DNA of 64,000 nt from an uncultured Eubacteriales bacterium (GCA_900317675.1 ONHU01000002.1:10697-74696), one strand, 5' to 3'. Shown: positions 17,337 through 51,905, counted from the first letter of the stretch. Notes: a model not told the origin generated them from the sequence alone. Made by a program: numbers and translations.

Positions 17337-17348
17337 GAAGGTGCAGAC

Positions 17349-19100: not shown

Positions 19101-19102
19101 AC

Positions 19103-19546: not shown

Positions 19547-19559
19547 GGACATTTCGCAT

Positions 19560-34043: not shown

Positions 34044-34212
34044 ATTACTGACCGCCAATTCATAAAATGACGTGCGTAAGCCGTTTGTCCTTGAAAATAC
34101 ATTTCTCCTAGGTTACACTTTTAACAAAGATACGCAGGGACGCTTCGCCGGTCAGGCGGTGCGCCTCCGTGTCAATGGAGAGGGAAAGAAAGAAATAAGA
34201 AAGAGGTGTTCC

Positions 34213-35415
34213 ATGAAAGATCTTAAGCATCTTTTGTACTTTGAGGATCTCCTCCAGAATGCCAACAACGAACTGATCGAGCAGGCCCGTTCAGAGGGTC
34301 GTATCTGCGCAGCTTTCACTTGTGAAAATCTGCCTGAGCCTCTGATGAACCTCGGCAATGCCTTTTCAGTTCGTCTTTTTGCGCCTAATTCCGGCTCGCT
34401 GGATATTGCGACATATTATATGACCAATCTCCTGTGCGAGACGAGCCGCGCCCTTCTGGAGAGAGCGATTGAAGGAGGCTTTAATTTTGCCGACTGTCTG
34501 ATCGCCGCTGACGGATGCACTATGATGAACCGTGCGGCAGAGAATATGTGTCTTCTGAATACAATGGACGAAGACAAGAAGAAATTCTTCTATGAATTTA
34601 TGGAGATCCCGCTCAAGGCTGACGAAAACGGAGTGGAGCTGCTGGTGCTCCAGTGCAAAAACCACATACTGAAGCCGCTCAGCGAGAGATATGGAATAGA
34701 CGTTTCGGATGATGCGATACTCAAGGCTGTAGAAGAGCACAACGAAGTATGCAGACTCTTAAGAGAACTCGGTGAATTCCGCAAAGAAGAAGATCCGAGG
34801 ATCACAGGCTACGAGTTTGCTGTATTTACACTCGCATCCTACGTAGCGCCAAAATATCTTCTCATAGATAAACTCAGAGAGACCCTGGAGGAGGTCAGGA
34901 CAAGAGAGCCGGACGGCAAGAAGTGGCGCGCGCGCGTCATGGTAGTCGGCTCCGAGGTCGACGATGTCGCCTTCATCAAGCTCATCGAGGGATGCGATAC
35001 TTATGTATGCGCAGACAGATACTGCTTCGGATCATTCCCGGGCAGGGAACCGATCGTGATCGATCCTGCATCCGATGAGGATATCCTCACACAGGTCTGC
35101 CGCCATTACGTATACTGGGGCCAGTGTCCGCGTATGATGAACATGGACAAGGTCTACGGCCGCAAGAAATATGTCAACGATATAGCAAAAGAATATAACG
35201 CCGACGGAATCATCTATGAGCAGGTCAAGTTCTGCGACCCGTGGGCTTACGAGAGGATGCTCGGTTCACACATGCTCCGCGAGGATTACGGATTTCCTGT
35301 CCTCTCGGTAGACAGGCCGTACAATATCGCGTCCGGCGCCGGCCAGATGCGCACAAGAGTGCAGGCTTTCGTTGAGAGCATCGAGATCAAGAAGCTGCAG
35401 GGAGGTGAGAAGTAA
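34213..35415 (+). CDS. HAD/BCR-family component D small (beta-like) subunit, paralog 1 (S1)
   Basis: 400 aa from the ATG at 34213 (AAGAGG RBS; the ORF-track start at 34072 was rejected). MKDLKHLLYFEDLL. Conserved Cys in FTC, DGCT, KFCDPW. C-terminal RVQAFVESIEIKKLQ. Confidence 0.85.
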   Translation: MKDLKHLLYFEDLLQNANNELIEQARSEGRICAAFTCENLPEPLMNLGNAFSVRLFAPNSGSLDIATYYMTNLLCETSRALLERAIEGGFNFADCLIAADGCTMMNRAAENMCLLNTMDEDKKKFFYEFMEIPLKADENGVELLVLQCKNHILKPLSERYGIDVSDDAILKAVEEHNEVCRLLRELGEFRKEEDPRITGYEFAVFTLASYVAPKYLLIDKLRETLEEVRTREPDGKKWRARVMVVGSEVDDVAFIKLIEGCDTYVCADRYCFGSFPGREPIVIDPASDEDILTQVCRHYVYWGQCPRMMNMDKVYGRKKYVNDIAKEYNADGIIYEQVKFCDPWAYERMLGSHMLREDYGFPVLSVDRPYNIASGAGQMRTRVQAFVESIEIKKLQGGEK

Positions 35416-37124: not shown

Positions 37125-38168
37125 TTACTGTGCCGTGAACGATGCCAGAAACTCTTCGAATACGGCCACATCGTCGTCTGTCAGAGCAGGGGCATCCGCG
37201 ATCAGATTGCCGTCAGAGTCATAGGAGCTCGCGCTCATGGTTATGATGTATAAAGCGCCGTCTGCCATAAAACCGGAAGTGCAGATGCGCAGGTTCCCAT
37301 CTGAATCAGGACGCTTCGATATGAAGCCCTCATTCCCCGCGATCGTAGTCGGATCTGCATCCTGCGCGTTTACGCTGTACTCCTCTTCAAGAGCAGCAGC
37401 CGCTTCCTCGCTTGATACATCGAGTTCAGTGTAGTCCGATTCATCAGTCTTGCTTATGCTGATGAGGAGGTTGTCCTTCGACATGTTGATAAATGAATCT
37501 GTGGTATCGGTAACCTCATATCCATCCGGTACAGTATATGTGAAAGCGCCGATGGAATTCTCCGGAATCCCTTTTTGCTGCATCGAAGCGCCGTCACCCG
37601 GCGTTACACTGGATATGATTTTATCGAATATTGCAACTTCGTCGCTGCCCAGAAGAGCCGCACCTTCTTTTGGCGTCCCGTCTTCTTCTACTGCGGACGG
37701 ATCGGCGAGTGTCAGTCTGTATACCGTGTCGTCATATATCCATGCTGCATTGAGATATAAATATTCGCCGTCTCCGGCTTTACGTTTGAGGTATACCGCG
37801 TCACTGCCGCAGATCTCAATTGACTCCTGCTCGAGATCATATTTGCTGATGTTTTCGTCAGAAGCTTTGCATACCTTATCGAAAAATTCCTGAACTGTCA
37901 TTTCGCTGTAGGCAGGGTCCAGGGACTCGAGAGCTCCCTCGGTGAGCATCTGGACGTTCAGGGAATATCCGCTGTCAGCGCCGCTGTATATAGAATAGCT
38001 GTCAGGCGCGAATTCAGTCAGTGACCAGTCGTCAGGCACAGTAAAAACGATGCTTCCGAGACCGGCATTGGCATCTGTATTCGACGGCTGTCCGCCTCCG
38101 CCGCATCCGGCGAATGAAAAAATCAGCGCAATGACTGAAAGCGCCACTATTATTTTTTTTCTTATCAT
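37125..38168 (-). CDS. Lipoprotein of unknown function (two internal repeats)
   Basis: 347 aa. MIRKKIIVALSVIALIFSFAGCGGG lipobox. Repeated FTVPDDW.../FTYTVPDGY... modules. AAGGAG RBS. Confidence 0.7.
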   Translation of the reverse strand: MIRKKIIVALSVIALIFSFAGCGGGGQPSNTDANAGLGSIVFTVPDDWSLTEFAPDSYSIYSGADSGYSLNVQMLTEGALESLDPAYSEMTVQEFFDKVCKASDENISKYDLEQESIEICGSDAVYLKRKAGDGEYLYLNAAWIYDDTVYRLTLADPSAVEEDGTPKEGAALLGSDEVAIFDKIISSVTPGDGASMQQKGIPENSIGAFTYTVPDGYEVTDTTDSFINMSKDNLLISISKTDESDYTELDVSSEEAAAALEEEYSVNAQDADPTTIAGNEGFISKRPDSDGNLRICTSGFMADGALYIITMSASSYDSDGNLIADAPALTDDDVAVFEEFLASFTAQ

Positions 38169-38235
38169 GATATGTCTCCTTATCTGAATCTTCCGTTTCT
38201 CTCGCGGAAGCCTGCAGCCCGGATCTCAGCCCGGA

Positions 38236-38556
38236 CTAACCGGCATTATTGATGAGAGAAAGAGCCTCCTCGATGAGGTCGTTGCTTTCGCCAAGCTTGT
38301 CGACAGCCTGATGGATCAGGTCACCGCTCACTTCGTCAAAGCAGTGAGCAAGATCATGAAGCTCCTCTGCATGGTGGCGGTTGTGGTTCAGCATATAGGT
38401 GAGAAGAGCCAGAGCTTCCTCAGGAGAAGAAGCAGGCGCGTGACTGTGTGAATGGACAGTGCCGTCCGCGTGTGTGTGGACATGAGTATGTCCGTCATGC
38501 TCATGCTCGTGCCTGACTGCATGTGTCGTTGTATCGTTTCCTTCTTTGCTGCACAT
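38236..38556 (-). CDS. Small histidine-rich putative metal-binding protein
   Basis: 106 aa from the ATG at 38556 (GGAGGA RBS). HAVRHEHEHDGHTHVHTHADGTVHSHSH followed by a helical LLTYMLNHNRHHAEELHDLAH. The longer ORF to 38871 would overlap the divergent gene. Confidence 0.6.
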   Translation of the reverse strand: MCSKEGNDTTTHAVRHEHEHDGHTHVHTHADGTVHSHSHAPASSPEEALALLTYMLNHNRHHAEELHDLAHCFDEVSGDLIHQAVDKLGESNDLIEEALSLINNAG

Positions 38557-38662
38557 GGTGATTCCTCCGCAGGTAGATTTTTTCTTGCAATTATTATAAT
38601 ATTCCATTAATGAGAGGTCTACAACCGGCTTTTTCGAAAAATCAGGAACCGGGAGAATACAT

Positions 38663-39622
38663 ATGGATAACATCATTGAATCGCGCCATAAACAGATAAA
38701 CGGAAAAATAGCGGTGATCGGACTGGGTGCTACAGGCTCGCCGATCGCGGATATGCTGTACCGGAAGTACGCGGACAGGTTTGTTCTGCTCTCGGACAGC
38801 AGGCATGCCGAAAGGCTCAGCAGCGGGCTTCTCCATATCAACGGCAGGACCTTCGATCCGGATGTGATCACGCCTGAGACCTATAACGGAGAAAAGATAG
38901 GGGTGCTTTTCATCTGCGTCAAGAATTACAGCATCGATGAAACGGCTGACCAGATCGCGGATATGATCGACGAAGATACGATACTCATGCCTCTGCAGAA
39001 CGGACTCTTCTCATACAACTATCTGAGAGAGCACCTTCCTGACAACATAGTCCTTGAAGGATTCGTACAGGGTCCCAATACAAGGATATACGGAAATGAC
39101 ATAGTATACCAGAATCCGGGAGTATATCATCTCGGGAAGAACTTCAGCGGAATGAAGGGTTATGCAAAGGCTGTATATGAGATCCTCCGGGATGCCGGAG
39201 TGCCATGCGTGCTGGAAGACGATATCAGACATGCTATCTGGTGCAAGCTGATGATCAATGTGGCCGGCAACGCGCTGACTGCTCTTACCGATCTTGACTA
39301 TGTCATGATCAGAAGCTCTGCGGAAGCGCAGAAGATCTGCCGCACGATCATGCAGGAGTACAAATTCGTAGCAGCTACGGAAGACGTCCTCATCACAGAG
39401 GCAGACATTTCCGAGGCGATGAACTATTTCATGACCTACAGCGAGTCAAAACTCACATCCATGCTCGAGGACGTCATGAACAAGAGGCAGACAGAGAACG
39501 AATTCATAGCCGGATACATCAAGCGGCTTGCCCAGAAGAATGGCGTGAACGCTCCGTTTATCGACATGCTCTACTCGATCATGCGCATCAAGGAAGATGT
39601 CTATCTCGGAAAGCTCAGATAG
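38663..39622 (+). CDS. 2-dehydropantoate 2-reductase family (PanE/ApbA) oxidoreductase, copy 1
   Basis: 319 aa. KIAVIGLGATGS Rossmann motif, VKNY, C-terminal SMLEDV...R.TE (ApbA_C). Confidence 0.78.
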   Translation: MDNIIESRHKQINGKIAVIGLGATGSPIADMLYRKYADRFVLLSDSRHAERLSSGLLHINGRTFDPDVITPETYNGEKIGVLFICVKNYSIDETADQIADMIDEDTILMPLQNGLFSYNYLREHLPDNIVLEGFVQGPNTRIYGNDIVYQNPGVYHLGKNFSGMKGYAKAVYEILRDAGVPCVLEDDIRHAIWCKLMINVAGNALTALTDLDYVMIRSSAEAQKICRTIMQEYKFVAATEDVLITEADISEAMNYFMTYSESKLTSMLEDVMNKRQTENEFIAGYIKRLAQKNGVNAPFIDMLYSIMRIKEDVYLGKLR

Positions 39623-39661: not shown

Positions 39662-39697
39662 AAGGCCCTTGCGGAACCATCTCCGCAGGGCCTTTTA
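39662..39697 (+). terminator. Intrinsic terminator after PanE-like copy 1
   Basis: GGCCC(T)TGCGGA-acca/tc-TCCGCAGGGCC followed by TTTT. Confidence 0.7.
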
Positions 39698-39750: not shown

Positions 39751-39940
39751 TAGAGTATTCTGACCAAATGTAAAATAAAGTTCTAAAAAAATACAAAATT
39801 ACGGACAAAAACCCCCTGACGGGGATGCCATTTTCATTGACACATTAATCACAAGAGACTTAAAATATTACCAATAGTATAATGTTGGGAGTAGTGCGTC
39901 CGGAGGTATTTTTGTCTGTTTTTCAGACCGTTTTACTGCC

Positions 39941-39993: not shown

Positions 39994-41184
39994 ATGCGTG
40001 ATTTAAAGCATCTGATCTACTTTGAGGACCTTTTGCAGGAGGCAAACAATGACCTCGTGCGGAAGGGCAAGGAAGACGGCAATCTGTGTCTCGGATACAC
40101 TTGCTACTTCATGCCGGAAGTCCTCCTCGATCTGCCGGGATGTTTCTCGGTCAGACTGAGAGCGCCTAAGTGCACATCTCCGGATATGGCATCTTACTAT
40201 ATGTCCGGCAGAACCTGTCACTATGGCAGATCACTTCTTGAAAGAGCCCTGGAAGGCGGATACAACTTCATCGACGCCCAGCTCGCTACAGAGACCTGCA
40301 CGGTCACATGCAGATTCCAGGAGCATCTTGGCTACATGGATGACGTTATCAACAACTCGACATTCAAAACAGAGTTCACAGACGTTCCGTTCAAGAAAAA
40401 CGAAAACAGCATCGACCACTACAGGAAGCAGCTCAAGCTTCACGTTCTCGATTTCCTTGAAAGAGAGTATGGCGTAGACACTTCCGATGAAGCCATTCTC
40501 AAGGCAATCGAGATCAACAACGAAGTCAACGACATCATCACAGAGATCGGTAATTTCCGCAAACTCGATAACCCTACCATTACCGGATATGAGTTCAGCG
40601 TCATCACACTGGTATCGATGGTCTGCCCTAAGTATCTGATCGTCGACAAGCTCAGAGAGACGCTCGAGGAACTCAGGACAAGAGAGCCGGATGATAAGCC
40701 GAACTACAAGATCAAGGTCCTGCTCGCAGGTTCCGAGAACGATGACCCTGACTTCATCAAACTGATCGAAGGCTGCGGAGCTCTCGTAGTTGCTGACAGA
40801 TACTGCTATGGCTCACTTGAGGCCAGAAACCACATCAACATCGAGGAAGGCGACGATCCTCTGACTGCTGTCGCCAAGCACTATCTGCTTACGAGCCAGT
40901 GCGCAAGATTCATGGAGCAGAAGGAGATGAGAAACCGCAAGAAAGTCATCGCTGACTACGCCAAGGAATACAAGGCCGACGGTATCATTGTGGCATCCAA
41001 CAAGTTCTGCGAATACTGGAGCTATGAGAGAATGATCGATACCATCATACTCCCAAGAGACTACGGATTCCCGGTATGCTCCATCGAGAAAGAGTACATC
41101 AACACAGCATCCGGACAGCTGAGGACCAGATTCCAGGCGTTCGTTGAGAGTGTTGAACTCAAGAAGATCCAGGAGGTCAAGTAA
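39994..41184 (+). CDS. HAD/BCR-family component D small subunit, paralog 2 (S2)
   Basis: 396 aa. MRDLKHLIYFEDLL. Cys in YTC, ETCT, KFCEYW. C-terminal RFQAFVESVELKKIQ. GGGAGG RBS. Confidence 0.85.
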   Translation: MRDLKHLIYFEDLLQEANNDLVRKGKEDGNLCLGYTCYFMPEVLLDLPGCFSVRLRAPKCTSPDMASYYMSGRTCHYGRSLLERALEGGYNFIDAQLATETCTVTCRFQEHLGYMDDVINNSTFKTEFTDVPFKKNENSIDHYRKQLKLHVLDFLEREYGVDTSDEAILKAIEINNEVNDIITEIGNFRKLDNPTITGYEFSVITLVSMVCPKYLIVDKLRETLEELRTREPDDKPNYKIKVLLAGSENDDPDFIKLIEGCGALVVADRYCYGSLEARNHINIEEGDDPLTAVAKHYLLTSQCARFMEQKEMRNRKKVIADYAKEYKADGIIVASNKFCEYWSYERMIDTIILPRDYGFPVCSIEKEYINTASGQLRTRFQAFVESVELKKIQEVK

Positions 41185-41185
41185 G

Positions 41186-42823
41186 ATGAAGAAACCTGAT
41201 TTGAAGAAACTCAAAGAAGTCGACTTCAAGAAGGCTGCTAAGGATTTCGTCTACGGCAAGCCTCACGGAGAAAGAAGACTGGGCGACCTGTACATCCCTA
41301 AGACAGGTCTTTACAAACACAGAGAATGGCGCGGTATCAAGGATACCATGTACTATTTCAACAACATCTGGCTGTACAACTACGGAATGATCGTCCGTGA
41401 CCTCATGGTTTACGGCGGCGGCCCTAAGGGCGCGATCCAGTTCCTCAAGGGTACATGGAGATACAGATGGATGGGCCAGACATACCTGACAGTAATGCAC
41501 TGGTTCGACAGAAACCTTGAAGGTATGAGAGGCGAGGCTCTCAGAGGATCCGCATGGCATTTCAGAGGCATCACAAGCGCATGCCTCCTGCAGATCACCG
41601 GATGGTTCAACAGAGACCTTAACATCGGCGGAGATGCTGCACTCAGAGCTAAGACGATCGGTCATGACGAGACTCTGTGGGGCGGAATCTTCTATCCGTA
41701 CACAGACCAGGGAATCGAGAACATTCCTCTGCAGATGATCCCTTACTTTGTAACATGCCACTGCAACAACCACACAGTACTGAACTACATCGATGCATCT
41801 CAGGCATACGGACTCCCGGGCGACCCTTGTCCGATGTGCCAGGCAGAAGCGGGAATCTTTATTGAAGACGATGTTCCGGATTCATACGTAGCACTCATCA
41901 CAACGAACGAAGCATGCGACGGTTCCGTAGGAACATCTGTCATTCAGGACTGGATGATCAACAAGCCGCTCTTCGCAATGCCGCAGCCGATGCAGTTCGA
42001 TGACGATTCAGTCCTCGAGAACTGCGCTAAGGAAATCGAAGGCGCATGGAGATTCACAGAAGAACAGCTCGGAGTAGAGTTCCACTGGGATGAGCTCGTC
42101 AAGAGACTTGAGCAGCAGAACGAACTTCAGAGATTCGAGTGGGAGAAGTGGGACGTTGCTGCCAACACTAACAACTATCCGATCAACGGCGTAGCTCAGG
42201 CCCTTTACAGAATCTTCCAGTCACAGTACGGTGACAGACCTCTCTGGCATGACGTTGACAAACGCGTCAAGAAGATCATGGACAAGTGCGTTGAAGAAAA
42301 AATCAACACCTTCCCGATGACACGCCACAGAGTTATCGCATGGAGCTGTGCTCCTCTGTACTACTCAGCATGGTGCACATGGGCATACAACTGCTGGGGA
42401 CTCAATACCATCATCAACATGGACTCGCTGATGTTCGACATGGAGATCCGCACAGACTCATATGAGAACTGCCTGCTCGATATGGCGAAGTATCATGAAT
42501 GGGCTCCGATGAGAAGAATGGCTGTAGGCGGACTGCAGCACATCTTCGAGCTCTGGGAGAACATGGAAAAGTTCAATTGCGACATGGTCATGATGTACGA
42601 CCAGCTGCAGTGCAAGGGCATGCAGGGTGTCGTAGGACTGTTCGAAGATGAGTTCAGAGCACGTAACATCCACGCTATCTGGATGCCACATGCACTGCCT
42701 GATAAGAGAACTGTTCCGAGATCTCAGATCAGACAGATCATCAATGACTACATGTTCACTGTAATGGGCGAAGAACCGCTCGATCCGTCACTGCTTGACT
42801 TTGACGATATCGACAGCTGGTAG
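41186..42823 (+). CDS. HAD/BCR-family component D large subunit, paralog 2 (L2)
   Basis: 545 aa from the ATG at 41186 (AGGAGG RBS inside the S2 3' end). GLPGDPCP, ACDGS, LQCKGMQG. Confidence 0.8.
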   Translation: MKKPDLKKLKEVDFKKAAKDFVYGKPHGERRLGDLYIPKTGLYKHREWRGIKDTMYYFNNIWLYNYGMIVRDLMVYGGGPKGAIQFLKGTWRYRWMGQTYLTVMHWFDRNLEGMRGEALRGSAWHFRGITSACLLQITGWFNRDLNIGGDAALRAKTIGHDETLWGGIFYPYTDQGIENIPLQMIPYFVTCHCNNHTVLNYIDASQAYGLPGDPCPMCQAEAGIFIEDDVPDSYVALITTNEACDGSVGTSVIQDWMINKPLFAMPQPMQFDDDSVLENCAKEIEGAWRFTEEQLGVEFHWDELVKRLEQQNELQRFEWEKWDVAANTNNYPINGVAQALYRIFQSQYGDRPLWHDVDKRVKKIMDKCVEEKINTFPMTRHRVIAWSCAPLYYSAWCTWAYNCWGLNTIINMDSLMFDMEIRTDSYENCLLDMAKYHEWAPMRRMAVGGLQHIFELWENMEKFNCDMVMMYDQLQCKGMQGVVGLFEDEFRARNIHAIWMPHALPDKRTVPRSQIRQIINDYMFTVMGEEPLDPSLLDFDDIDSW

Positions 42824-42834
42824 AAAGGAGGCCG

Positions 42835-43065
42835 ATGATGAAGAGAAAGGCTAAGAAAAAAAGAACTGTCGGCAGGTTCATTAAGAAAACGCTCAGACTC
42901 GGAGTGCTCGCTTATGCCGGACTGTTTTGCGTATTTTACTATGATCTCGACGGAAAGCTGCTCTACTACGTTGTTGAGCCGTTCTTGAAGAACCACTTCG
43001 ACAACATGGAGAGAAGAGATCCGACGACAGTACCATACGAACAGATCGATTCGGAGTACATGTAA
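42835..43065 (+). CDS. Small single-pass membrane protein (K-rich N-terminus), homolog of 50038-50220
   Basis: 76 aa. Strong GGAGG RBS 5 nt upstream. KKKRTVGRFIKKTLRLGVLAYAGLFCVFYYDLDGKLLYY. Confidence 0.55.
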   Translation: MMKRKAKKKRTVGRFIKKTLRLGVLAYAGLFCVFYYDLDGKLLYYVVEPFLKNHFDNMERRDPTTVPYEQIDSEYM

Positions 43066-43068
43066 AGT

Positions 43069-43166
43069 GAATCGCTTGTTCCGTCTCCCGAGTACGACTC
43101 GCGTCTCGCGCCGGCGACGCAGCGGTACTAAGCTCTGTCTTCGCCTGCGGCACGGAACAATGCGAT
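43069..43166 (+). other. GC-rich structured non-coding element (about 98 nt, closed by a 15-bp stem) containing a conserved motif
   Basis: AATCGCTTGTTCCGT (43069-43083) pairs with ACGGAACAA(T)GCGATT (43151-43166). It encloses the sub-hairpins CGAGT-acg-ACTCG and GCGTC...GACGC and the motif at 43118-43146. No U-tract. Confidence 0.5.
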
Positions 43167-43274
43167 TGAAACAGGAAAGCTGATGTGAACTGTATCGTTT
43201 CACTCACAAGCCTTGCAGCCTCATCAGTTTTTCAAAGATATAAGTTAAAAATACAGAAAGAAGTTACAGCAATT

Positions 43275-45191
43275 ATGAAGAAGAAGTTTAAAGCTGAATC
43301 CCAGCGTCTGCTGGATCTGATGATCAATTCGATCTATACGCACAAGGAGATTTTCCTGCGTGAGATCATTTCCAATGCATCTGATGCTATCGACAAAATG
43401 TGCTATCTTGCGCTGACGGACAAGTCGGTGGGTATGAACAGGAGCGATTTTGAGATCATCATCACTCTCGACAAGGAGAACCGTACGCTTACGGTCAGCG
43501 ACAACGGGATCGGCATGAATGAGGAAGAGCTCGAGAAGAATCTCGGAACCATCGCTTTCTCAGGAAGCAGGAAGTTCTCCGAAGAGATCGAGAAGGCTGA
43601 CAAAGCGAAGGAAGGCGCAGCAGCTGCGTCCCTTGCCGATCAGGTCGATATCATCGGACAGTTCGGAGTCGGCTTTTACTCAGCATTCATGGTAGCAGAC
43701 AAGGTCGAAGTCGTAACCAGAAAATACGGCGAAGACAAGGCCTGGAGATGGGTTTCTGAGGGAGCCGGGGGCTATACGATCGAAGAGGCAGAGCGTGACA
43801 GTCAGGGAACTGATGTCATCATGCACATCAGACAAGACGGCGAAGACAAGGATGAGTTCAGCCAGTACATGAGGGAGTACCCTATATACAAACTCGTAAA
43901 GAAGTACTCGGACTACATCCGCTTCCCGATCAAGATGCTGATGCCGCATCCTCAGATCAAGGAAGGCTCTGATCCGAAGAACCCGGAATATGAAGAGGTA
44001 TACGAATACGAAGTGTTCAACTCGATGGTTCCTCTGTGGCAGCGCAAGAGAGCGGAGGTCACCAAAGAGGAATACGAAGAGTTCTACAAATCGACGTTCC
44101 AGGATGATCTGGCTCCGCTTGAGACTATCACGGTCTCGGTTGAAGGAATCGTCAGCTATGACGCTCTGATGTTCATCCCGGAAAAGGTGCCTAACAAGTA
44201 CTATACGGACGACTTCACGGGAGGTCTTCAGCTTTACAGTTCCGGCGTCCTGATTATGGATCAGTGCAAAGAACTGCTCCCTGAATATTTCAACTTTGTC
44301 AGGGGCGTTGTCGACTCGCCGGATCTGTCCCTCAATATTTCAAGAGAAGTGCTCCAGCATGACAGACAGCTGAGACTGATCTCCAGGAATCTTGAGAAAA
44401 AGATCCGCGGCAAGCTCGAAGATATGAGGGACAATGACCGCGAGAAATACGAGACCTTCTACAAGAGCTTCGGCCGTCAGATCAAGCTCTGCGCGCTCGA
44501 TGACTACGGTAAGTACAAAGAAGAACTCCAGGATTTCCTGATGTTCTACTCCTCGACAGAAAAGAAGCTCGTGACGCTTGCTGAGTATGTCGGCAGGATG
44601 AAGGAAGATCAGGAGTACATCTACTACGCAAGCGGAGACAGTCTTGACGCAGTAGACAAGATGCCTCAGACAGAGATCCTCAAAGACAAAGGCATCGAGA
44701 TCCTGTACTTTATCGACAGCACGGATGAGTTCGTCTCGGATATGTTCAGAAGCTACAAGGACAAGAAGTACATGTCGGTCATCGACGGAGACTTCGATCT
44801 CGGAGACGGCAAGACAGACGAGCAGATGACTGAGACATTCAAAGACACCTTTGATTTTGTCAAGGAGACGCTCGGAGATAAGGTCGATGTAGTAAAAGCT
44901 ACGACCAAGCTGAAGTCTCATCCTGTATGCATATCAAGCGGAGACGGCATTACGTTCGAAATGGAGAAATACTTTACAGCCGTCAATCCGGAGCTTGGCA
45001 TGAAAGCCAAGAGGATCCTTGAGCTCAATGTGGATCACAAAGCGTTCCTGGCGCTTGACAGGGCAAGGCTCGATGATCCGGAAAGAGCTAAGAAGATGTG
45101 CGAGGTCCTCCTCAATCAGGCTCTCCTGATCGCAGGACTTCCGATCAACGATCCTTCAGACTACACAGACATCGTATGCTCATTCTTCTAA
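43275..45191 (+). CDS. htpG: Molecular chaperone HtpG (Hsp90)
   Basis: 638 aa from the ATG at 43275. FKAESQRLLDLMINSIYTHKEIFLREIISNASDAIDK, GQFGVGFYSAFMVAD. The ORF-track start at 43185 was rejected. Confidence 0.9.
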   Translation: MKKKFKAESQRLLDLMINSIYTHKEIFLREIISNASDAIDKMCYLALTDKSVGMNRSDFEIIITLDKENRTLTVSDNGIGMNEEELEKNLGTIAFSGSRKFSEEIEKADKAKEGAAAASLADQVDIIGQFGVGFYSAFMVADKVEVVTRKYGEDKAWRWVSEGAGGYTIEEAERDSQGTDVIMHIRQDGEDKDEFSQYMREYPIYKLVKKYSDYIRFPIKMLMPHPQIKEGSDPKNPEYEEVYEYEVFNSMVPLWQRKRAEVTKEEYEEFYKSTFQDDLAPLETITVSVEGIVSYDALMFIPEKVPNKYYTDDFTGGLQLYSSGVLIMDQCKELLPEYFNFVRGVVDSPDLSLNISREVLQHDRQLRLISRNLEKKIRGKLEDMRDNDREKYETFYKSFGRQIKLCALDDYGKYKEELQDFLMFYSSTEKKLVTLAEYVGRMKEDQEYIYYASGDSLDAVDKMPQTEILKDKGIEILYFIDSTDEFVSDMFRSYKDKKYMSVIDGDFDLGDGKTDEQMTETFKDTFDFVKETLGDKVDVVKATTKLKSHPVCISSGDGITFEMEKYFTAVNPELGMKAKRILELNVDHKAFLALDRARLDDPERAKKMCEVLLNQALLIAGLPINDPSDYTDIVCSFF

Positions 45192-45200
45192 GGAGATAAA

Positions 45201-45968
45201 ATGTCAGAAACACGTGACACCAAAATTTTAACAGTTGCAGGCAAAGGCGGCGTCGGAAAGACGTCGATCAGCTCGGCTATGGTCAGGATCCTCACAGAGG
45301 AATACCCTGACGCAAGGATCCTGGCGATCGATGCTGATCCGGCGATCGGGCTTACTACAGCTCTCGGAGTAGAGCCTACAGACACTCTTGACGGGATCCG
45401 CAAGAAGATCGTCGGAAGCGTCGAGGACGGACGTCCGAAGGAAGCGATCGAGATGCTCAACGAAGCAAGGTTCAGGATCTTCGATACAATGGTCGAAGAG
45501 AACAGATTCAGTTTTCTTGCCATCGGAAGACCTGAGGCTGCCGGATGCTACTGCAAGGTAAACGCATATCTCAAAGAGGTCATCAGCCTTCTGGCTAATG
45601 ATTTCGACTATGTGGTGATAGACGGCGAAGCCGGGATCGAGCAGATCAACCGCCGCGTCATGGAAAAGGTCACACACCTTTTCCTCATCACAGACCCGAG
45701 CCGCAAAGGCTGCAAGGTAGTGGATACGATCAAGTCCGTTGCTGACGAACTGGTGATGTACGACAAGTGCGGAGTCATCGTCAACAGGGTCAAGGAAGAA
45801 TCCATACCATATATTAAGATCGAATCGGCAGAGGTCCTTGCATACATCCCTGATGACAAGGCCCACTCCGACAACGATATAATGGGCATCAGCGTCTTCG
45901 ATCTGCCGGAGGATTCTCCGGTCATGAAAGGGACCAGGGAAGCCCTCAAGAAGATGCAGATAATTTAG
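45201..45968 (+). CDS. CooC/AcsF-family P-loop ATPase with CxC metal motif
   Basis: 255 aa. VAGKGGVGKTS deviant Walker A, AIDADP, GRPEAAGCYCKVNAYL (CxC), VVIDGEAGIEQ. Begins 9 nt after the htpG stop. Confidence 0.8.
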   Translation: MSETRDTKILTVAGKGGVGKTSISSAMVRILTEEYPDARILAIDADPAIGLTTALGVEPTDTLDGIRKKIVGSVEDGRPKEAIEMLNEARFRIFDTMVEENRFSFLAIGRPEAAGCYCKVNAYLKEVISLLANDFDYVVIDGEAGIEQINRRVMEKVTHLFLITDPSRKGCKVVDTIKSVADELVMYDKCGVIVNRVKEESIPYIKIESAEVLAYIPDDKAHSDNDIMGISVFDLPEDSPVMKGTREALKKMQII

Positions 45969-46033
45969 CCGGGGCGGCAGAGGGAGCTTTTCCCTGCGGC
46001 CAAGGCGCTTTATAAGAGAGGGAGGTTTTTACA

Positions 46034-47224
46034 TTGAAAGACTTGAAGCATTTAATCTACTTCGAGAACCTTCTGGACAACGCAGACAATGAGCTGGTGG
46101 AACAGGCCAGGAAAGACGGCAAGATGATCATGGGTTATACCTGCTATCACATTCCTGAAGTTCTCCTGAACGTTGACAACTGCGTGTCGGTGAGACTGCG
46201 TGCTCCTAGAACAGGATCGGTCGACATTTCCACATATTATATGTCGAACTATGTATGTGAATTTGCACGCGCTCTGCTGGAGAGGGCTATCGAGGGAGGA
46301 TATCAGTTCCTGGACGGACTTGCGGCAGTCGATGCCTGTTCGATGATGAACAGATTCTACGAGCACTTCGGCATACTCAAGTGCAACAACAAGGATCATT
46401 TCTTCCTGCCTATCCTGGACGTTCCTTACAAGACAGAGGAATTCTCCTACAGACACATGCAGAGACAGTTTGAGGCAAGACTCCTGCCGGCAATGCAGGA
46501 GAATCTGGGAACAGATATCTCAGACGCCAAGATCCGTGAAGCAGTCGCAATGCACAATGAAGTCTGCAAGGTCATCCAGGAGATCAGCGAGATGCGTAAG
46601 GCAGACAACCCTGTTATCACAGGATACGAGTTCCATGTGATCAATCTTGTCTCCTACACATGCCCTAAGTATCTGATACTTCCTTATCTCAAGGAGACTC
46701 TTGAGGAGCTCAGGAAGAGAAAACCGGATGAGAAACTGCCGAGAGCAAGAGTCGGCATCGTGGGTTCTGAGATCGATGATCCTGAGTTCACCAAGATGAT
46801 CGAGGATGCGGGAGCAAGAGTGGTATTCGACAGACATTGCTTCGGATCGATCCCTGGCAGAGAAGTGATCGAGCTTTCAGATAAGGAAGACGCACTTCCG
46901 CAGATCGTTCGCCACTATATGAATACTTCTGAGTGCGCTCGTTATATCGCAGACAACAAAGTACAACAGAGAAGAGAAACTGCTGACAGACTGGCGAAGG
47001 AATTCAAGGCAGACGGCATCATCTACGAGCAGATGAAGTACTGCGATTTCTGGGGATTTGAAAGAGCCCTCGTCAGCCACATCATGGCAGAAGAATACGG
47101 CTGGCCGGTACTGTCCATAGACAGACTGTACAACGCAAGAGGATCCGGACAGCTCAGAACTAGATTCCAGGCGTTCGTTGAATCGCTGGAGATCAAGAAG
47201 ATCCAGAAAGGAGGCAAGAAGTAA
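46034..47224 (+). CDS. HAD/BCR-family component D small subunit, paralog 3 (S3)
   Basis: 396 aa. TTG start 9 nt after GGGAGG. (M)KDLKHLIYFENLL. Cys in YTC, DACS, KYCDFW. C-terminal RFQAFVESLEIKKIQ. Confidence 0.82.
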   Translation: MKDLKHLIYFENLLDNADNELVEQARKDGKMIMGYTCYHIPEVLLNVDNCVSVRLRAPRTGSVDISTYYMSNYVCEFARALLERAIEGGYQFLDGLAAVDACSMMNRFYEHFGILKCNNKDHFFLPILDVPYKTEEFSYRHMQRQFEARLLPAMQENLGTDISDAKIREAVAMHNEVCKVIQEISEMRKADNPVITGYEFHVINLVSYTCPKYLILPYLKETLEELRKRKPDEKLPRARVGIVGSEIDDPEFTKMIEDAGARVVFDRHCFGSIPGREVIELSDKEDALPQIVRHYMNTSECARYIADNKVQQRRETADRLAKEFKADGIIYEQMKYCDFWGFERALVSHIMAEEYGWPVLSIDRLYNARGSGQLRTRFQAFVESLEIKKIQKGGKK

Positions 47225-48975
47225 TGGTACTGACAACAGAATTATTAGGCATCAGGAATTCTCTTGCCGAGAAGAAGGAACTCAAAGCTAAGAAAGCAGC
47301 CGCAAAGGGCAAAGTAAAATATCCGAATCCTGCATTCTGGCGCTGCAAGGACAATATGGACTTCAAGGCGCAGGGCAAGAACCTCATGGAAGTCGGCAAG
47401 ATCATCATGGAGATGACCAAGGAAGCCGACATCAAGGGCTTCTGCGCTAAGCAGGTTGACAGGTGCAAGGACGACCTTGCAAGATGCGCACTTGAGATCA
47501 GACAGGCAAAAGAGATGAGCCCGGAAGAGCGCAAGGAGGTCTTCCTCTACGGAGAGAGAACTCTCGGTAAGCTCTACCGCAAGGGTGACATGGTTCCTGT
47601 AAGAAGAGAGTGGAGAGGCGCTGCAGATACAGCATATGACTTCTACAGATGGGGCAAGATGTGGCTTATGCTGCTCACCACATTCAGCAGAGACCTTATC
47701 CCGGCGCTCAACTCGACATTCTACTACAGATGGATGATCTCATATTTCTGCTGCGTAGGCTTCATGGACAAGAACACCTCCGGACAGAAGGGAAGCGCTC
47801 TGAAGATGTCGCACCTGATGACATATGACATCTTCCGTTATGTAGCTGAGAACCTGGTATTCCTCGCTAAGTGTGACAAGAAGAACGGTAACTCCGCAGC
47901 ACTCAACAAGAAGGTCGTACTCTTCGACGAGATGACAATGGGACAGATCATGGCAGGATTCCCTGATCTCCTCGGTATCCCTTACCAGCTGATGCCGGTA
48001 TTCCTGGTATCCGAGATCGACCAGCTCACGTGCGTTCCTTATATCGACGCTGTTGAGAGTTTCGGTCTCCCTGCTGATACCTGCCCGGTACCAAGCTCAG
48101 AATGCGGAGCTCTCGTAATCGACGCTCTGCCGCACATGGGATCATGCTTTATTTCAAGTTCGATGCCTTGCGATGGTTCGGTAATGGCTTCTGAATACAT
48201 GTCAAGAAGATTCCCGGATCTGCCGGTATATCACCTGACATTCCCTGTCAGATACGAATACGAAGAGACAACGCAGGATGCTGTTGAAGACATCAAGGGC
48301 TGCATCAAGTTTGTTGAGAAAGTCACAGGCGCTAAGTGGAGCTGGGATGCTTACTTCAAGCAGATGAAGCGTTTCAACGAGGAAACTGCATATGAGCTGC
48401 AGAAGTGGGAAGTCAACAAGACTGACTATCCGCAGATCATCGGACCTTCCTACGAACTGTTCCGTAAGTGGAACTACGAAATGGACGGCGGAGCTGACCC
48501 TCGTGTCATCAAGACTTTTGAAAAGGTCAATGACATCATGATGAAGGGTTATGAGAGACGCGAGGAAGCATGGCGCAACAAGATGCGCTACAGAGGAATC
48601 GTATGGTCCTGCCCTGCACACTACTATGCTAACTTCAGTAACTGGCTTGCTAACTGCTGGGGTATCGACATCCTCGTAGAGATGGAATCCCTCAACTTCA
48701 CCAAGGTTCTCGAGACAGAGGACAAGGAAGAGGCTCTGATGGATCTGGCAAGGCTCTACGAAAGAATGGTAATGAGAAGACATACCAACGGCGGATACCA
48801 CAACGTAGTTGACGAGATGTGGAGACAGGTCGAAGACTGGAGAGCAGAGATGGACCCTAGAACAGTCTCCAGAAAGTCCATGAGAGACAAGGTCAACGAA
48901 TACATGAGGACAGTCATGAGAGCTGAGCCTGTAGACCCGACACTCTGCGACTTCGACGACGAGCTTGGAATGTAA
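47224..48975 (+). CDS. HAD/BCR-family component D large subunit, paralog 3 (L3), divergent: N-terminal extension and internal C-terminal deletion
   Basis: 583 aa. Start overlaps the S3 stop (TAATG). GLPADTCP and PCDGS are present, but the ..SCK.. segment conserved in L1 and L2 is missing. Confidence 0.78.
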   Translation: MVLTTELLGIRNSLAEKKELKAKKAAAKGKVKYPNPAFWRCKDNMDFKAQGKNLMEVGKIIMEMTKEADIKGFCAKQVDRCKDDLARCALEIRQAKEMSPEERKEVFLYGERTLGKLYRKGDMVPVRREWRGAADTAYDFYRWGKMWLMLLTTFSRDLIPALNSTFYYRWMISYFCCVGFMDKNTSGQKGSALKMSHLMTYDIFRYVAENLVFLAKCDKKNGNSAALNKKVVLFDEMTMGQIMAGFPDLLGIPYQLMPVFLVSEIDQLTCVPYIDAVESFGLPADTCPVPSSECGALVIDALPHMGSCFISSSMPCDGSVMASEYMSRRFPDLPVYHLTFPVRYEYEETTQDAVEDIKGCIKFVEKVTGAKWSWDAYFKQMKRFNEETAYELQKWEVNKTDYPQIIGPSYELFRKWNYEMDGGADPRVIKTFEKVNDIMMKGYERREEAWRNKMRYRGIVWSCPAHYYANFSNWLANCWGIDILVEMESLNFTKVLETEDKEEALMDLARLYERMVMRRHTNGGYHNVVDEMWRQVEDWRAEMDPRTVSRKSMRDKVNEYMRTVMRAEPVDPTLCDFDDELGM

Positions 48976-49027
48976 ATGAGCTGTCAGCAAGCCCCTCGCA
49001 CAGCAAATATACATGCATAAAGAAGGG

Positions 49028-49056
49028 GCAGCGGTGCTAAGCTCTGACGTCGCCTG
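49028..49056 (+). repeat. Second copy of the conserved non-coding motif GCAGCGGTRCTAAGCTCTG..(N3)..TCGCCTG
   Basis: 18/19 identity with 43118-43136, plus TCGCCTG at the same offset. Lies 53 nt after the L3 stop. Confidence 0.55.
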
Positions 49057-49097: not shown

Positions 49098-49126
49098 TTT
49101 ACAATGCCCGCGGTACTGAATATAAT
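49098..49126 (+). promoter_or_regulatory. Putative sigma-A promoter for the activase operon
   Basis: TTTACA, 17 nt, TATAAT, located 47 nt upstream of the activase ATG. Confidence 0.5.
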
Positions 49127-49172: not shown

Positions 49173-49964
49173 ATGAAATATTATGGCGGCTGTGATGTAG
49201 GTTCAACTTATACAAAGGCAGTTATTCTTGATGAGGACGGCAAGATGGTAGCTGATACCACTATCAAGAGCAAGATCAATTCAGAGGCAAGCGCAAAACT
49301 TGCTATGGATGAGGTTCTCGGCAAGGTTGGCCTCAAGTCCTCAAAGGAACTCGCTTACCTCATCGGAACAGGTTACGGACGTAACAAGGTTCCTTTCGCT
49401 GACGAAAACATCTCCGAGATTTCCTGCCACGCTATGGGCGTTCACGTAACAGACCCATCCGTAAAGGCTATCATCGATATCGGCGGACAGGACGTTAAGG
49501 GTATCGCAGTTGATACTGACGGAACAGTTAAGAACTTCGCTATGAATGATAAGTGCGCAGCCGGAACGGGCAGATTCTACGAAGCAATGGCAAGATCCTT
49601 CGAAATGACTCTTCCTGAGTTCTCAAAGCTCTCACTGACAGCTAAGAACGTAATTCCTATCACTGCACAGTGCACAGTATTCGCAGAGTCCGAGGTTATC
49701 ACTCTCGTAGGCGAAAACAAGCCAATGGACGAGATCGCTGCTGGAATCCAGATGGCTGTAGCTAAGAGATGCTTCGTAATGGCTAAGAAGGCCGGCGCTA
49801 CTGACTCCATCACACTGACAGGCGGATGCGCTAAGAACGACGGACTCAAGGACGCGATCGAGCACGTACTCAAGCTCAAGGTCATCAACCTCAAGACTGA
49901 CCCGCAGCTGATGGGAGCACTTGGTGCTGCTGAATTCGCTCGCCAGAAGGGACAGGCAAAGTAG
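49173..49964 (+). CDS. HgdC/BcrAD/BadFG-type activating ATPase (archerase) of radical dehydratases/reductases
   Basis: 263 aa. GCDVGSTYTKAVILDEDG, DIGGQDVKG, NDKCAAGTGRF, AQCTVFAESEV, LTGGCAKN. Single-domain, homodimer-type. Confidence 0.88.
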   Translation: MKYYGGCDVGSTYTKAVILDEDGKMVADTTIKSKINSEASAKLAMDEVLGKVGLKSSKELAYLIGTGYGRNKVPFADENISEISCHAMGVHVTDPSVKAIIDIGGQDVKGIAVDTDGTVKNFAMNDKCAAGTGRFYEAMARSFEMTLPEFSKLSLTAKNVIPITAQCTVFAESEVITLVGENKPMDEIAAGIQMAVAKRCFVMAKKAGATDSITLTGGCAKNDGLKDAIEHVLKLKVINLKTDPQLMGALGAAEFARQKGQAK

Positions 49965-50037: not shown

Positions 50038-50220
50038 ATGGCAAAAAAGAAAAAATGTCCTGTATGCAGGGTAGTCGGCACAACAGTCAAGATCGGCTGC
50101 ATCGCAACAGGCGCACTCTTTACGGTCTATATGCTCAACCTCGACCAGAAGCTGCTCGCCTGGTCATATGCAAGAGTCAATGAGATCTTCGACCGTAAAC
50201 CGGTAGACATCAAGTTCTAA
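50038..50220 (+). CDS. Small single-pass membrane protein, homolog of 42835-43065
   Basis: 60 aa. GGAG RBS 6 nt upstream. MAKKKKCPVCRVVGTTVKIGCIATGALFTVYMLNLDQKLLAW. Confidence 0.5.
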   Translation: MAKKKKCPVCRVVGTTVKIGCIATGALFTVYMLNLDQKLLAWSYARVNEIFDRKPVDIKF

Positions 50221-50239
50221 AATTCTTAATCATGCATAG

Positions 50240-50269
50240 GCGCCCTCACGTTTACAGGCGTGAGGGCGC
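50240..50269 (+). terminator. Strong hairpin after the activase operon (no U-tract)
   Basis: GCGCCCTCACG-tttacagg-CGTGAGGGCGC, an 11-bp perfect stem. Confidence 0.45.
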
Positions 50270-50773
50270 TAATATAATAGAAATTATTGCAGTGATCAAT
50301 AATGTGCAATGAGCGGGTACCGGAATAAGCAGGTCAGCTTGCGGGATATCACGGCACAAAAGCAGTTTGCGAAAAGATTGTACATGAAAAGCCGGAAATG
50401 ACGCTTCTGTGTACAATACTTTGCAGCCGGAACCGGGCTGCCGGGGTGAAAGAGAAGAATCACATTCCAACTAAGGAGTTTTTTGCCCGTATAAGGGCAT
50501 GATAGAGCGATTATCAGCTGTTATTATGTGAAAAGCAGAAATTATAATGCATTAATGCTCTGAAAACAGATAAGCAGAGAGATTTATTGTACATATCAAG
50601 GGCTTTTTCGCCGTTTCATGTACAGTTTTCAATAAAAGTCCGCTGCACGCAATGCAGAAGTGATGTGAACCGATGGCTCGGCATACCAGCCGGCGGTGCG
50701 GAACATCAAAACGAAGAAGCGGACAGATAATGTTAAGATCGATGTATCGACGAGATAATAAAGAGGGATAATA

Positions 50774-51511
50774 ATGGAACTGTATAATTCTATAATCGAC
50801 AAGATCGACGGCCTGCTTGGCAGTTCTGCGCCAAGACGCTATGACTATGACCCTGATAAAACCTGGGAGGATGTAGGCGGCAACCAGCTCGTCATGCTCA
50901 AAGAGTCCGCGTACGAGCTCGGCGGGGATAACAAGCCTGCAGTCAACTACGCCTGTGTCACATCAGGTGACTATGTGGACAAGGATGAGATCCTGGTATA
51001 CGGAAGAGACCTCAGAGAGATCAGAGGAAGCGTTCCTTTTGCCAGAATCGCGATCATTAAGGTCAGTGATCTCGCCGGAGAGAATGAGGAGGATACCGAA
51101 CCGCTCTTCAGAGCGATCCAGGATATCGACTTTGTAAAATATCACGTATATCCTAAGGGCTATATGATCAGATCATCTTCTGACAGTTTCCGTGAGCAGG
51201 TAAGAGTATCTAAGGAAGCAGTCAGGAAGGGCATCACGTTTGAGCAGGTCGGAAACTCCTATATCACTCAGTTCAAAAAGAATCCCGACGTCCTTGCAGT
51301 AAAGCTTATCTTCGCTACAGTGGATGACGCGGATTATGCTGAGATGAAGAAGGATGCCAAAAAAGTCAGAGACATCACCAAGACTCTGTCCAAGATCCTC
51401 GAAGGAATGGCGACAGACTGCCACAGCTGCAGCCTCAAAGAGATCTGCGATGAAGTTGAAGGACTCAAGGAACTCCACTTCGGAAAAGAAAAGAAAGAAT
51501 TCAAAGGATAA
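50774..51511 (+). CDS. Stand-alone protein probably related to the central region of acetyl-CoA synthase (AcsB/CdhC), ending in CxxCx5C
   Basis: 245 aa. LKESAYELGG..., VRVSKEAVRKGITFEQVGNSYITQFKK and the terminal DCHSCSLKEIC resemble my recollection of the ACS segment preceding the A-cluster domain. No CGCF A-cluster motif. Confidence 0.5.
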   Translation: MELYNSIIDKIDGLLGSSAPRRYDYDPDKTWEDVGGNQLVMLKESAYELGGDNKPAVNYACVTSGDYVDKDEILVYGRDLREIRGSVPFARIAIIKVSDLAGENEEDTEPLFRAIQDIDFVKYHVYPKGYMIRSSSDSFREQVRVSKEAVRKGITFEQVGNSYITQFKKNPDVLAVKLIFATVDDADYAEMKKDAKKVRDITKTLSKILEGMATDCHSCSLKEICDEVEGLKELHFGKEKKEFKG

Positions 51512-51870: not shown

Positions 51871-51905
51871 GAGACCGGAGCAAATTGCTCCGGTCTTGTT
51901 GTTTA
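51871..51905. terminator. Bidirectional terminator shared by rpmE and argF
   Basis: AGACCGGAGC-aaatt-GCTCCGGTCT with T-rich flanks on both strands. Confidence 0.7.

Follow-up and report, generated by a model that had tools for sequence, protein, structure and literature searches.

A cooC-like ATPase gene beside htpG belongs to a conserved radical-enzyme cassette with a truncated acetyl-CoA synthase-like protein in gut and rumen Clostridia

The genes studied here are htpG and a neighbouring gene for a CooC-type ATPase (the cooC-like gene, product CooCL), at positions 43275-45968 of a 64,000-nucleotide (nt) stretch of DNA from an uncultured Eubacteriales bacterium (GCA_900317675.1 ONHU01000002.1:10697-74696); this whole stretch is called the window below. 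The two genes lie in a cluster with three pairs of genes for small (S) and large (L) subunits of a radical enzyme, numbered S1/L1 to S3/L3. We are highly confident that the cooC-like gene is a fixed member of a six-gene cassette present in many gut and rumen Clostridia, with the order cooC-like gene, S, L, activase, a microprotein of ~55-60 amino acids (aa) and a truncated acetyl-CoA synthase (ACS)-like protein, which we call CdhCL. HtpG is probably an ordinary Hsp90, a facultative and probably co-transcribed neighbour in the Anaerovoracaceae and no fixed part of the cassette, as judged from its sequence and its surroundings across genomes. A preliminary description of this DNA had proposed htpG and the cooC-like gene as a dedicated folding and metallocluster-maturation module for the S/L proteins; it leaves out the ACS-like gene at 50774-51511, with which the cooC-like gene is most constantly associated.

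Linkage was surveyed by scanning one genome per species with the cooC-like protein, which gave 557 relatives, and the best 80 were inspected. These came from 80 different species, with 63-95% identity, and belonged to the Anaerovoracaceae (order Peptostreptococcales) and to the Oscillospiraceae, Ruminococcaceae, Lachnospiraceae and other families (order Eubacteriales); the window genome itself is of a rumen Anaerovoracaceae/Mogibacterium-like type. The window proteins were mapped onto the 80 loci, and the denominators given here are the loci with sufficient flanking sequence. The next gene 3' of the cooC-like gene was always a member of the cassette (74/74), being S in 69 loci, the activase in three and CdhCL in two. 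When the count was limited to loci with at least 6 kb of 3' flank (n = 40), CdhCL was found downstream on the same strand in every one and the activase in 38. In 57 loci, the microprotein gene followed the activase and preceded the ACS-like gene. The same cassette order was seen in metagenome contigs, and close homologues of the cooC-like gene (73-97% identity) were plentiful among Clostridia metagenome bins. Unbiased clustering of the open reading frames (ORFs) of the loci gave no further gene family common to most of them, no recurrent CoA-transferase or ligase family, and no ferredoxin or flavodoxin gene as a constant member of the cassette; htpG and an old yellow enzyme (OYE)/FAD ene-reductase recurred in subsets of the loci only.

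A few loci depart from the standard order. In three of them (L024, L040 and L069) the cooC-like gene, the activase and CdhCL are contiguous, with an S/L pair adjoining. In two others (L071 and L074) the cooC-like gene and CdhCL stand alone, with no S, L or activase gene within 10 kb. This last pair of genes (8145-11498) adjoins a divergent gene for an Fe-only-hydrogenase-like protein with ferredoxin domains.

CooCL is a member of the CooC/AcsF family by its Walker A motif, its CxC motif and its closest relative, and, like other members, it may bind and insert nickel with the use of ATP. The deviant Walker A GKGGVGKTS (residues 14-22), the CxC pair C116/C118 within GCYCKVN (residues 115-121) and an additional Cys190 were all invariant in 12 aligned orthologues. 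The form GKGGVGKT[T/S] is a mark of the MinD/Mrp class of ATPases (PMC6006190). The top match in the PDB was CooC1 of C. hydrogenoformans (3KJE; E 4e-16, ~62 bits), with the ATPase MinD following at E 8e-7, and the HMMER alignment placed C116-Y-C118 on C112-Y-C114 of 3KJE. In CooC1, Cys112 and Cys114 are metal ligands (Zn or Ni) at the dimer interface, with two cysteines contributed per monomer (PMC6006190). The preliminary description, which had placed a CooC/AcsF-type gene with these two motifs 9 nt past the htpG stop, agrees with the coordinates, the motifs and the CooC1 match found here. The product name given to CooCL orthologues by the JGI (Joint Genome Institute) is 'CO dehydrogenase maturation factor'. 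Among the NCBIfam models, none matched CooCL above its cut-off, and the MinD and ParA matches were sub-threshold only. The protein forms a tight separate clade, and few full-length representatives of 50%-identity clusters reach at least 55% identity to it. As for a nickel enzyme that might be its client, neither a carbon monoxide dehydrogenase (CODH) nor a full-length ACS was found in the scanned ORFs of the window or among the recurrent genes of the loci. A positioning role of the ParA/MinD type was also considered for CooCL but was rejected in view of the invariant CxC, the best match to CooC1 and the constant operon setting; the window has a parA/parB pair elsewhere, at 15514-17336.

At the other end of the cassette, CdhCL matched PF03598 with 35.5 bits (cut-off 24). 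Its residues ~40-200 correspond to the middle domain of ACS, and a profile search against the PDB returned ACS chains on top (E 5e-8); against the NCBIfam ACS equivalogs all scores were far below cut-off. The C-terminal motif C216-x2-C219-x5-C225-x9-H235 was invariant in 46 orthologues, and the protein ends 10 residues after it. When single sequences were aligned, the start of this motif met Cys 509 of ACS (1RU3 numbering) at the last aligned positions. We take Cys 509 to be the first ligand of the A-cluster cubane, and the matching place in ACS presumably reads C-x2-C-x8-C-x9-C. CdhCL is linked downstream in 40/40 loci and remains adjacent to the cooC-like gene even in neighbourhoods that lack S, L and the activase; it therefore appears at least as likely as S/L to be the direct client of CooCL.

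PF06050 was found in all six subunits, S1-3 and L1-3. The top PDB match of S3 was BzdN of the class I benzoyl-CoA reductase (BCR; 8S02, E 2e-27), followed by HadC and DCCP. The ligands of the [8Fe-9S] cluster of BzdN are C36/73/100/263/293/327 (PMC11971306), and C37/75/102/269/301/337 of S3 align with these six. The six cysteines were 100% conserved in 77 S sequences, S1 and S2 included, so that S carries the ligand set of an [8Fe-9S] double-cubane cluster, the cluster itself being predicted. The L subunits have PF06050 in their C-terminal half, a poorly conserved N-terminal extension of ~270 aa and a few invariant cysteines; L3 had no match among PDB sequences. All NCBIfam equivalog scores of S/L were far below cut-off, the best being 138.5 for double_cubane (cut-off 350), 97.4 for BzdN (453.8) and 79.7 for HadC (700), which gives no orthology to a characterised member. 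The activase, in turn, scored 188.6 bits against PF01869 and 213.8 bits against TIGR00241 (cut-off 125.4). Judged from these matches, S/L is a BzdNO-like heterodimer that forms a distinct branch of the class I BCR/2-hydroxyacyl-CoA dehydratase (HAD)/double-cubane family. Since no CoA-transferase or ligase recurs nearby, its substrate may not be a CoA ester.

A further gene near the cassette is that of the ene-reductase, an OYE-type FMN (flavin mononucleotide) plus FAD/NAD(P) (flavin adenine dinucleotide/nicotinamide adenine dinucleotide, optionally phosphorylated) protein of 758-778 aa resembling 2,4-dienoyl-CoA reductase (e.g., L001 7504-9780, minus strand). It was present in ~25 non-redundant loci (29 fetched) and in many Oscillospiraceae loci stands 5' of the cooC-like gene in divergent orientation; none was found in the window. 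As a neighbour, it may hint at the substrate class.

We hold it moderately probable that CooCL and CdhCL are a pair serving the radical-enzyme system, with HtpG as a neighbour. CooCL and CdhCL would act together, as AcsF does with acetyl-CoA synthase; acsF sits with acsB. A nucleotide-dependent CooCL dimer would use its four CxC cysteines to bind a metal ion or cluster, which it would deliver to the Cys3His site of CdhCL, and the loaded CdhCL could then be an accessory subunit, an electron-entry protein, or a donor of a cluster or metal for the activase-S/L system. The single activase, the cooC-like gene and CdhCL of the window probably serve all three S/L pairs. In the Anaerovoracaceae, htpG lies with the pair-2 module on one side and the cassette on the other, and transcription from the S2 promoter probably runs through it. 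Gene content, motifs and linkage were observed directly; the identity of the metal, the direct client of the ATPase, the co-transcription and any relation of HtpG to clients are inferred from them.

This pair model was preferred over a direct maturation of S/L because no other gene accompanies the cooC-like gene as constantly as CdhCL, because the pair persists without S/L nearby, and because a BzdN-type [8Fe-9S] protein, BzdNO, was made in E. coli without a special maturase (PMC11971306), so that cluster assembly in S/L as such has no obvious need of CooC. In the module of the preliminary description, HtpG and CooCL would act directly on S/L; they could, for instance, insert a heterometal or couple two cubanes into the [8Fe-9S] cluster, much as NifH assists in forming the nitrogenase P-cluster. 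The location of the cooC-like gene immediately upstream of S in 69/74 loci and the double-cubane ligands of S speak for such a module, as do the 9 nt between htpG and the cooC-like gene here, the adjacency of these two genes in 19/19 Anaerovoracaceae species, and the maturase role of NifH, which is of the same ATPase class (PMC6006190). Nevertheless, we consider it unlikely, since the cooC-like gene lacks an adjacent htpG in 53/53 other cassette species, BzdNO acquired its cluster in E. coli without a dedicated factor, the cooC-like gene stands with CdhCL and not with S/L in L071 and L074, and by the activase and CdhCL in L024, L040 and L069, and no cooC-like gene accompanies pair 1 or pair 2 of the window. 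What is supported of the module is the cooC-like gene as a dedicated accessory of the S/L system, found at the head of the cassette throughout the 80 species loci; htpG is not part of a two-gene module with it.

A different reading of the same pair is that CooCL and CdhCL are not maturation factors but a working redox or regulatory unit, in which CdhCL would be a low-potential [4Fe-4S] donor to the activase and CooCL its NifH-like, nucleotide-gated partner. Clusters of the bcr and bzd type contain ferredoxin genes, and no ferredoxin or flavodoxin gene is constant in the present cassette. Consistent with this are also the contiguity of the cooC-like gene, activase and CdhCL in L024, L040 and L069, the Cys3His motif of CdhCL, which is of a cubane-binding kind, and the binding of a cluster at the dimer interface by SIMIBI ATPases such as NifH (PMC6006190). 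However, the characterised CooC members treated in a review of the family are metal-insertion factors with very slow ATPase rates, and CooC1 has Zn or Ni, not a cluster, at its CxC site (PMC6006190). In addition, the activase already supplies ATP-driven electron injection. AcsF, for its part, is a nickel-insertion factor. Taken together, we find this redox reading improbable.

Several points weigh against the CooCL/CdhCL pair mechanism as preferred here. The A-cluster set of CdhCL is incomplete, with no Ni-binding Cys-Gly-Cys. The homology of its C-terminal motif with the cubane site is drawn from position and pattern, the ACS profile alignment stopping before the motif, and the AlphaFold2 model of CdhCL was unusable (mean predicted local distance difference test score 49, from an alignment of 18 sequences, all at least 82% identical). 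L071 and L074 represent a single lineage, since a gene beside the pair is 98.6% identical between them. Operon linkage alone cannot separate CdhCL, S/L or the activase as the target of the ATPase. Finally, L3 of the window carries a clean in-frame deletion of 114 nt at 48849/48850, flanked by GAT microhomology, by which 38 aa (IIIMYQNVACKNM...IEHDL) are lost, among them a cysteine that every complete orthologue, as well as L1 and L2, retains. This deletion was unique to the window among 69 complete sequences; the conspecific contig L168, whose HtpG is 100% identical, encodes a full L3 of 621 aa, and an exact-sequence look-up of the window L3 returned no record. The deletion may be a strain-level loss, with pair 3 inactive, or an assembly error.

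The window HtpG is a standard bacterial Hsp90. It scored 661.2 bits against the NCBIfam model NF003555, 'molecular chaperone HtpG' (cut-off 371), and its residues 2-635 were covered by PF00183 (HSP90), PF13589 and PF02518 (HATPase_c). The N-terminal ATPase signature is present (FKAES... and EIISNASDAIDKM), with residues that are invariant in the HtpG alignment; we take this signature to comprise the catalytic Glu and the ...ISNASDAxDK motif.

Among the cassette species with sufficient flank, htpG stood immediately 5' of the cooC-like gene in 19/19 from the Anaerovoracaceae, compared with 0/53 of the others. The linkage noted in the preliminary description therefore recurs in related genomes, with the two genes adjacent in the Anaerovoracaceae and not in the rest. 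One Anaerovoracaceae-related species has a sodium:alanine symporter gene inserted between htpG and the cooC-like gene (L027 8351-9769). Outside the Anaerovoracaceae, htpG was present in the flanks of 3/60 cassette species (~552 kb scanned) vs ~0.2 expected by chance, which is our own estimate and assumes one htpG per ~2.5-3 Mb genome.

The neighbourhood was also approached from the side of htpG, by a metagenome scan with the Oscillospiraceae HtpG of locus L035 as seed. It gave 80 loci, which were pooled into species-like groups at 95% htpG nucleotide identity. Homologue searches with HtpG and CdhCL yielded only close relatives (at least 86% and at least 82% identity, respectively), and the reach of the linkage was taken from the locus scans instead. 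About one third of the 80 HtpG-seeded gut loci had S/L-type modules beside htpG, in at least six gene orders: htpG was the first gene of an S-L-microprotein operon, or followed an S2-L2-microprotein(-activase) unit, or lay downstream of cooC-like-S3-L3-activase on the same strand (L138), or was convergent with the cooC-like cassette, among other arrangements. Within these Oscillospiraceae-like gut contigs, 9/11 informative species-like groups were S/L-linked. Given this repeated placement of htpG by S/L modules, the S/L Fe-S proteins are plausible candidate clients of HtpG.

The opposite possibility, which concerns htpG only, is that its position has no functional meaning: a housekeeping gene would have been carried along by inherited synteny or island transfer, and the cassette would work without HtpG. 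This has a substantial chance of being right, if somewhat less than an even one, and the following observations weigh against a functional tie. No htpG was found in the fetched flanks of 57/60 non-Anaerovoracaceae cassette species. Two large groups of closely related HtpGs lack S/L modules in their surroundings, even at loci with 10 kb of sequence on each side. S/L-linked and unlinked HtpGs are equally close to the window HtpG (65-70%), one unlinked group shares 91% identity with a linked HtpG, and the window HtpG passes as a standard equivalog. In the gut contigs, a csoR-like gene and ORFs of 168 and 85 aa lie on the same strand just upstream of htpG whether or not S/L is present, and the linkage could be inherited synteny or the transfer of a whole island. 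A position without meaning, on the other hand, fits less well with an htpG-S/L linkage that occurs in two orders and at least six gene orders and in 9/11 informative HtpG groups, with the 3/60 flanks against ~0.2 expected, and with the short intergenic distances around htpG in several species (5-38 nt), which point to shared transcription.

That the window HtpG is a specialised paralogue is unlikely: the equal similarity of linked and unlinked HtpGs fits one ordinary orthologue, and the equivalog model is passed. The csoR-like gene beside htpG encodes a repressor of the CsoR family (PF02583) whose N-terminus is rich in His and which shows the pattern C...H-x3-C (L001 17986-19133, minus strand; L088-L167), and the 168-aa ORF is flavodoxin-like by eye, with no Pfam match. 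A metal-sensing repressor beside htpG may be of relevance to the CooC link.

The features of the cluster are listed in Table 1. As the preliminary description had it, htpG lies between the pair-2 module and pair 3, with S2/L2 (39994-42823) and S3/L3 (46034-48975) on its flanks. The cooC-like gene starts 9 nt after the htpG stop, and an AGGAG Shine-Dalgarno sequence overlaps that stop codon; the TTG start of S3 (46034) follows 65 nt after the cooC-like stop. No terminator-like site was found on the plus strand of 39994-49000 in a consensus scan, which bears out the absence of a terminator between the cooC-like gene and S3. HtpG had been described as usually standing alone; here, operator searches gave no CIRCE or CtsR box near htpG, and no consensus promoter or terminator was found in its flanks, nor could a convincing promoter be placed in the 209-nt gap before it. 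An Rfam scan of 32000-52500 gave a single sub-threshold chance match.

It is plausible that htpG, the cooC-like gene, S3 and L3 are co-transcribed, as proposed before, since no canonical terminator intervenes and the gaps in relatives are short. In several Anaerovoracaceae relatives, the microprotein and htpG are 5-38 nt apart, htpG and the cooC-like gene 7-28 nt, and the cooC-like gene and S 26-45 nt, and these small junctions fit a single polycistronic message. The 209-nt region is absent or far shorter (5-50 nt) in many relatives. In the window its two hairpins have z ~ -3.2 each, and the hairpin with U5 before htpG may attenuate or terminate part of the read-through, which counts against a co-transcription in full. 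The simplest explanation is read-through of htpG from the S2 promoter, perhaps partly attenuated, and separate promoters may serve the activase and the ACS-like gene.

Table 1. Genes and predicted signals of the radical-enzyme cluster in the window (TM75 and TM60, microproteins)
Feature	Position	Strand	Remarks
Aldo/keto reductase with Fe-S domains	32845-33984	+	
S1/L1, PF06050 pair	34072-35415 and 35415-37019	+	Without own activase, cooC-like or ACS-like gene
PanE-like reductase	38663-39622	+	
Terminator-like site	39667-39690		Upstream of the S2 promoter-like site
Promoter-like site, TTGACA-18-TAAAAT, 11/12	39837-39866	+	Before S2; possible start of a long transcription unit
S2, small subunit of pair 2	39994-41184	+	PF06050; BzdN/DCCP-like
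L2, large subunit of pair 2	41186-42823	+	PF06050; ATG start
75-aa microprotein (TM75)	42838-43065	+	Hydrophobic helix; 3' of L2 in relatives; paralogue of TM60
Structured 209-nt intergenic region	43066-43274	+	Long hairpin, then second hairpin ending in U5
htpG, full-length bacterial Hsp90, 638 aa	ATG 43275 to stop 45191	+	NF003555, PF00183
cooC-like gene (CooCL), CooC-family P-loop ATPase, 255 aa	ATG 45201 to stop 45968	+	Walker A, CxC, PDB match
S3, small subunit	46034-47224	+	TTG start; PF06050; six invariant Cys
L3, large subunit	47224-48975	+	PF06050 C-terminal half and ~270-aa N-terminal extension
Promoter-like site, TTTACA-17-TATAAT, 11/12	49098-49126	+	Strong site; before the activase gene
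Activase, BcrAD/BadFG-type, ATP-dependent electron injector	49173-49964	+	PF01869, TIGR00241; sole one found in the window
60-aa microprotein (TM60)	50038-50220	+	Between activase and ACS-like gene
CdhCL, truncated ACS-like protein, 245 aa	50774-51511	+	PF03598
Terminator-like hairpin, 12 pairs	51871-51897	+	Closes the cluster

The mechanical ORF of L2 begins at a TTG at 41144, and the ATG at 41186 is favoured by the relatives and by the calls in conspecific contigs (545 aa). The microproteins belong to a family of 55-76 aa with a single hydrophobic helix and a conserved C-terminal half (...NLDQKLL.W.Y..VN.IFDRK..DIKF), of which one copy is placed after L2-type subunits and one after the activase. 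Neither TM75 nor TM60 had a match in Pfam, and the CPVC motif of the window microprotein is unconserved outside the Anaerovoracaceae.

Between the 60-aa microprotein and the ACS-like gene lies a gap of ~550 nt (50221-50773) that has no ORF above 72 aa on either strand and no Rfam match. It contains a strong promoter-like site, TTTACA-16-TATAAT, at 50251-50278. The gap is shorter in Anaerovoracaceae relatives, and in Oscillospiraceae loci the two genes abut. A 29-nt direct repeat, GCAGCGGTRCTAAGCTCTGWCKTCGCCTG, is present in two copies of 90% identity, one before htpG (43119-43147) and the other before the activase gene (49028-49056). No such repeat is expected by chance, and L008, L011 and L025 contain its core between L3 and the activase. 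Known from these two window copies and three copies in relatives, it could be an operator shared by htpG and the activase or a small repeated element.

Upstream, the plus-strand cluster is broken between L1 and the PanE-like gene (37125-38871) by two minus-strand ORFs. One of them, of 347 aa, has no significant family; the other is a DUF8180 protein of 106 aa in conspecific contigs, and the mechanical call of 211 aa (38236-38871) is probably overlong. Further upstream, at 11088-20945, are mnmE, mnmG, rsmG, parA, parB, a gene for a GdpP-like phosphodiesterase and dnaB. This gene set, together with a steadily rising cumulative GC skew, suggests that the cluster is near the chromosomal replication origin.

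BCR, HAD and double-cubane enzymes are not known to need anything beyond their activase and generic Fe-S assembly. A constant CooC-type ATPase with an ACS-derived Cys3His protein would point to an unrecognised accessory requirement, possibly a non-iron metal or an electron-entry subunit, and would mean that maturation parts of the Wood-Ljungdahl pathway have been redeployed in a different enzyme system. The farthest-reaching form of this idea, which we regard as doubtful, is that the cassette marks an unrecognised branch of the BCR/HAD/double-cubane enzymes, needing nickel, a heterometal or a special cluster that is installed in AcsF-like manner on an ACS-derived subunit, with S/L as Hsp90 clients. 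The cassette also suggests a recipe for the heterologous expression of these orphan enzymes, in which the cooC-like gene, cdhCL, the microprotein gene and perhaps htpG would be co-expressed. Natural clients of bacterial Hsp90 are few, and the recurrent neighbourhood of htpG offers a testable candidate class; if S/L are indeed clients, they would be a defined, genetically linked class of Hsp90 clients in anaerobes.

In full-text literature searches, no publication was found that connects HAD, BCR or double-cubane enzymes with CooC/AcsF, an ACS-like protein or HtpG, in keeping with the earlier statement that a dependence of S/L-type enzymes on such factors is undescribed, and none reporting Fe-S radical enzymes as HtpG clients. 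The paper on the BzdNO structure mentions no CooC, ACS-like or HtpG factors (PMC11971306), and neither does a double-cubane review.

Compared with known systems, CooCL resembles CooC/AcsF (ChCooC1, 3KJE) in its size of ~255 aa, in the deviant Walker A GKGGVGKT, in a CxC corresponding to Cys112/Cys114, and in sharing an operon with an ACS homologue. It differs in that it reaches ~62 bits to CooC1, forms its own clade and has the extra invariant Cys190, and in that no CODH or full-length ACS was seen in the scanned window ORFs or recurrent genes, the operon encodes a BCR/HAD-type enzyme, and the ACS-like partner is without the Ni-binding Cys-Gly-Cys. CdhCL shares with ACS (AcsB/CdhC) the middle domain and a C-x2-C...C...H motif after it. 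Unlike ACS, it has 245 aa instead of ~730 aa, with neither the N-terminal domain nor the remaining A-cluster domain, its last ligand is His and not Cys, and it has no link to CODH or corrinoid protein genes.

With regard to the enzyme, two PF06050 subunits and a BcrAD/BadFG activase are shared with the Bzd-type BCR (BzdNO and BzdPQ), HadBC/HadI and DCCP/DCCP-R, and S3 keeps all six [8Fe-9S] cysteines of BzdN, whereas the equivalog scores are below cut-off, L has the N-terminal extension of ~270 aa, and three extra conserved genes are present here (cooC-like, microprotein and ACS-like). We know of none of these three in bzd, had, fld or DCCP loci. The HtpG of the window is alike to bacterial Hsp90 in general, standard by model score and by domains. 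HtpG clients or HtpG-dependent systems known so far are few and include the nonribosomal peptide synthetase (NRPS) and polyketide synthase megaenzymes for colibactin and pyoverdine. The notion of HtpG supporting large, complex enzymes has a parallel in NRPS work (bioRxiv 10.1101/2025.07.01.662645). In contrast to these NRPS/HtpG systems, the present one offers evidence from gene neighbourhood, its candidate clients are Fe-S radical enzymes, and the linkage is confined to certain lineages. All of the parts come from known families, and it is their combination that is new.

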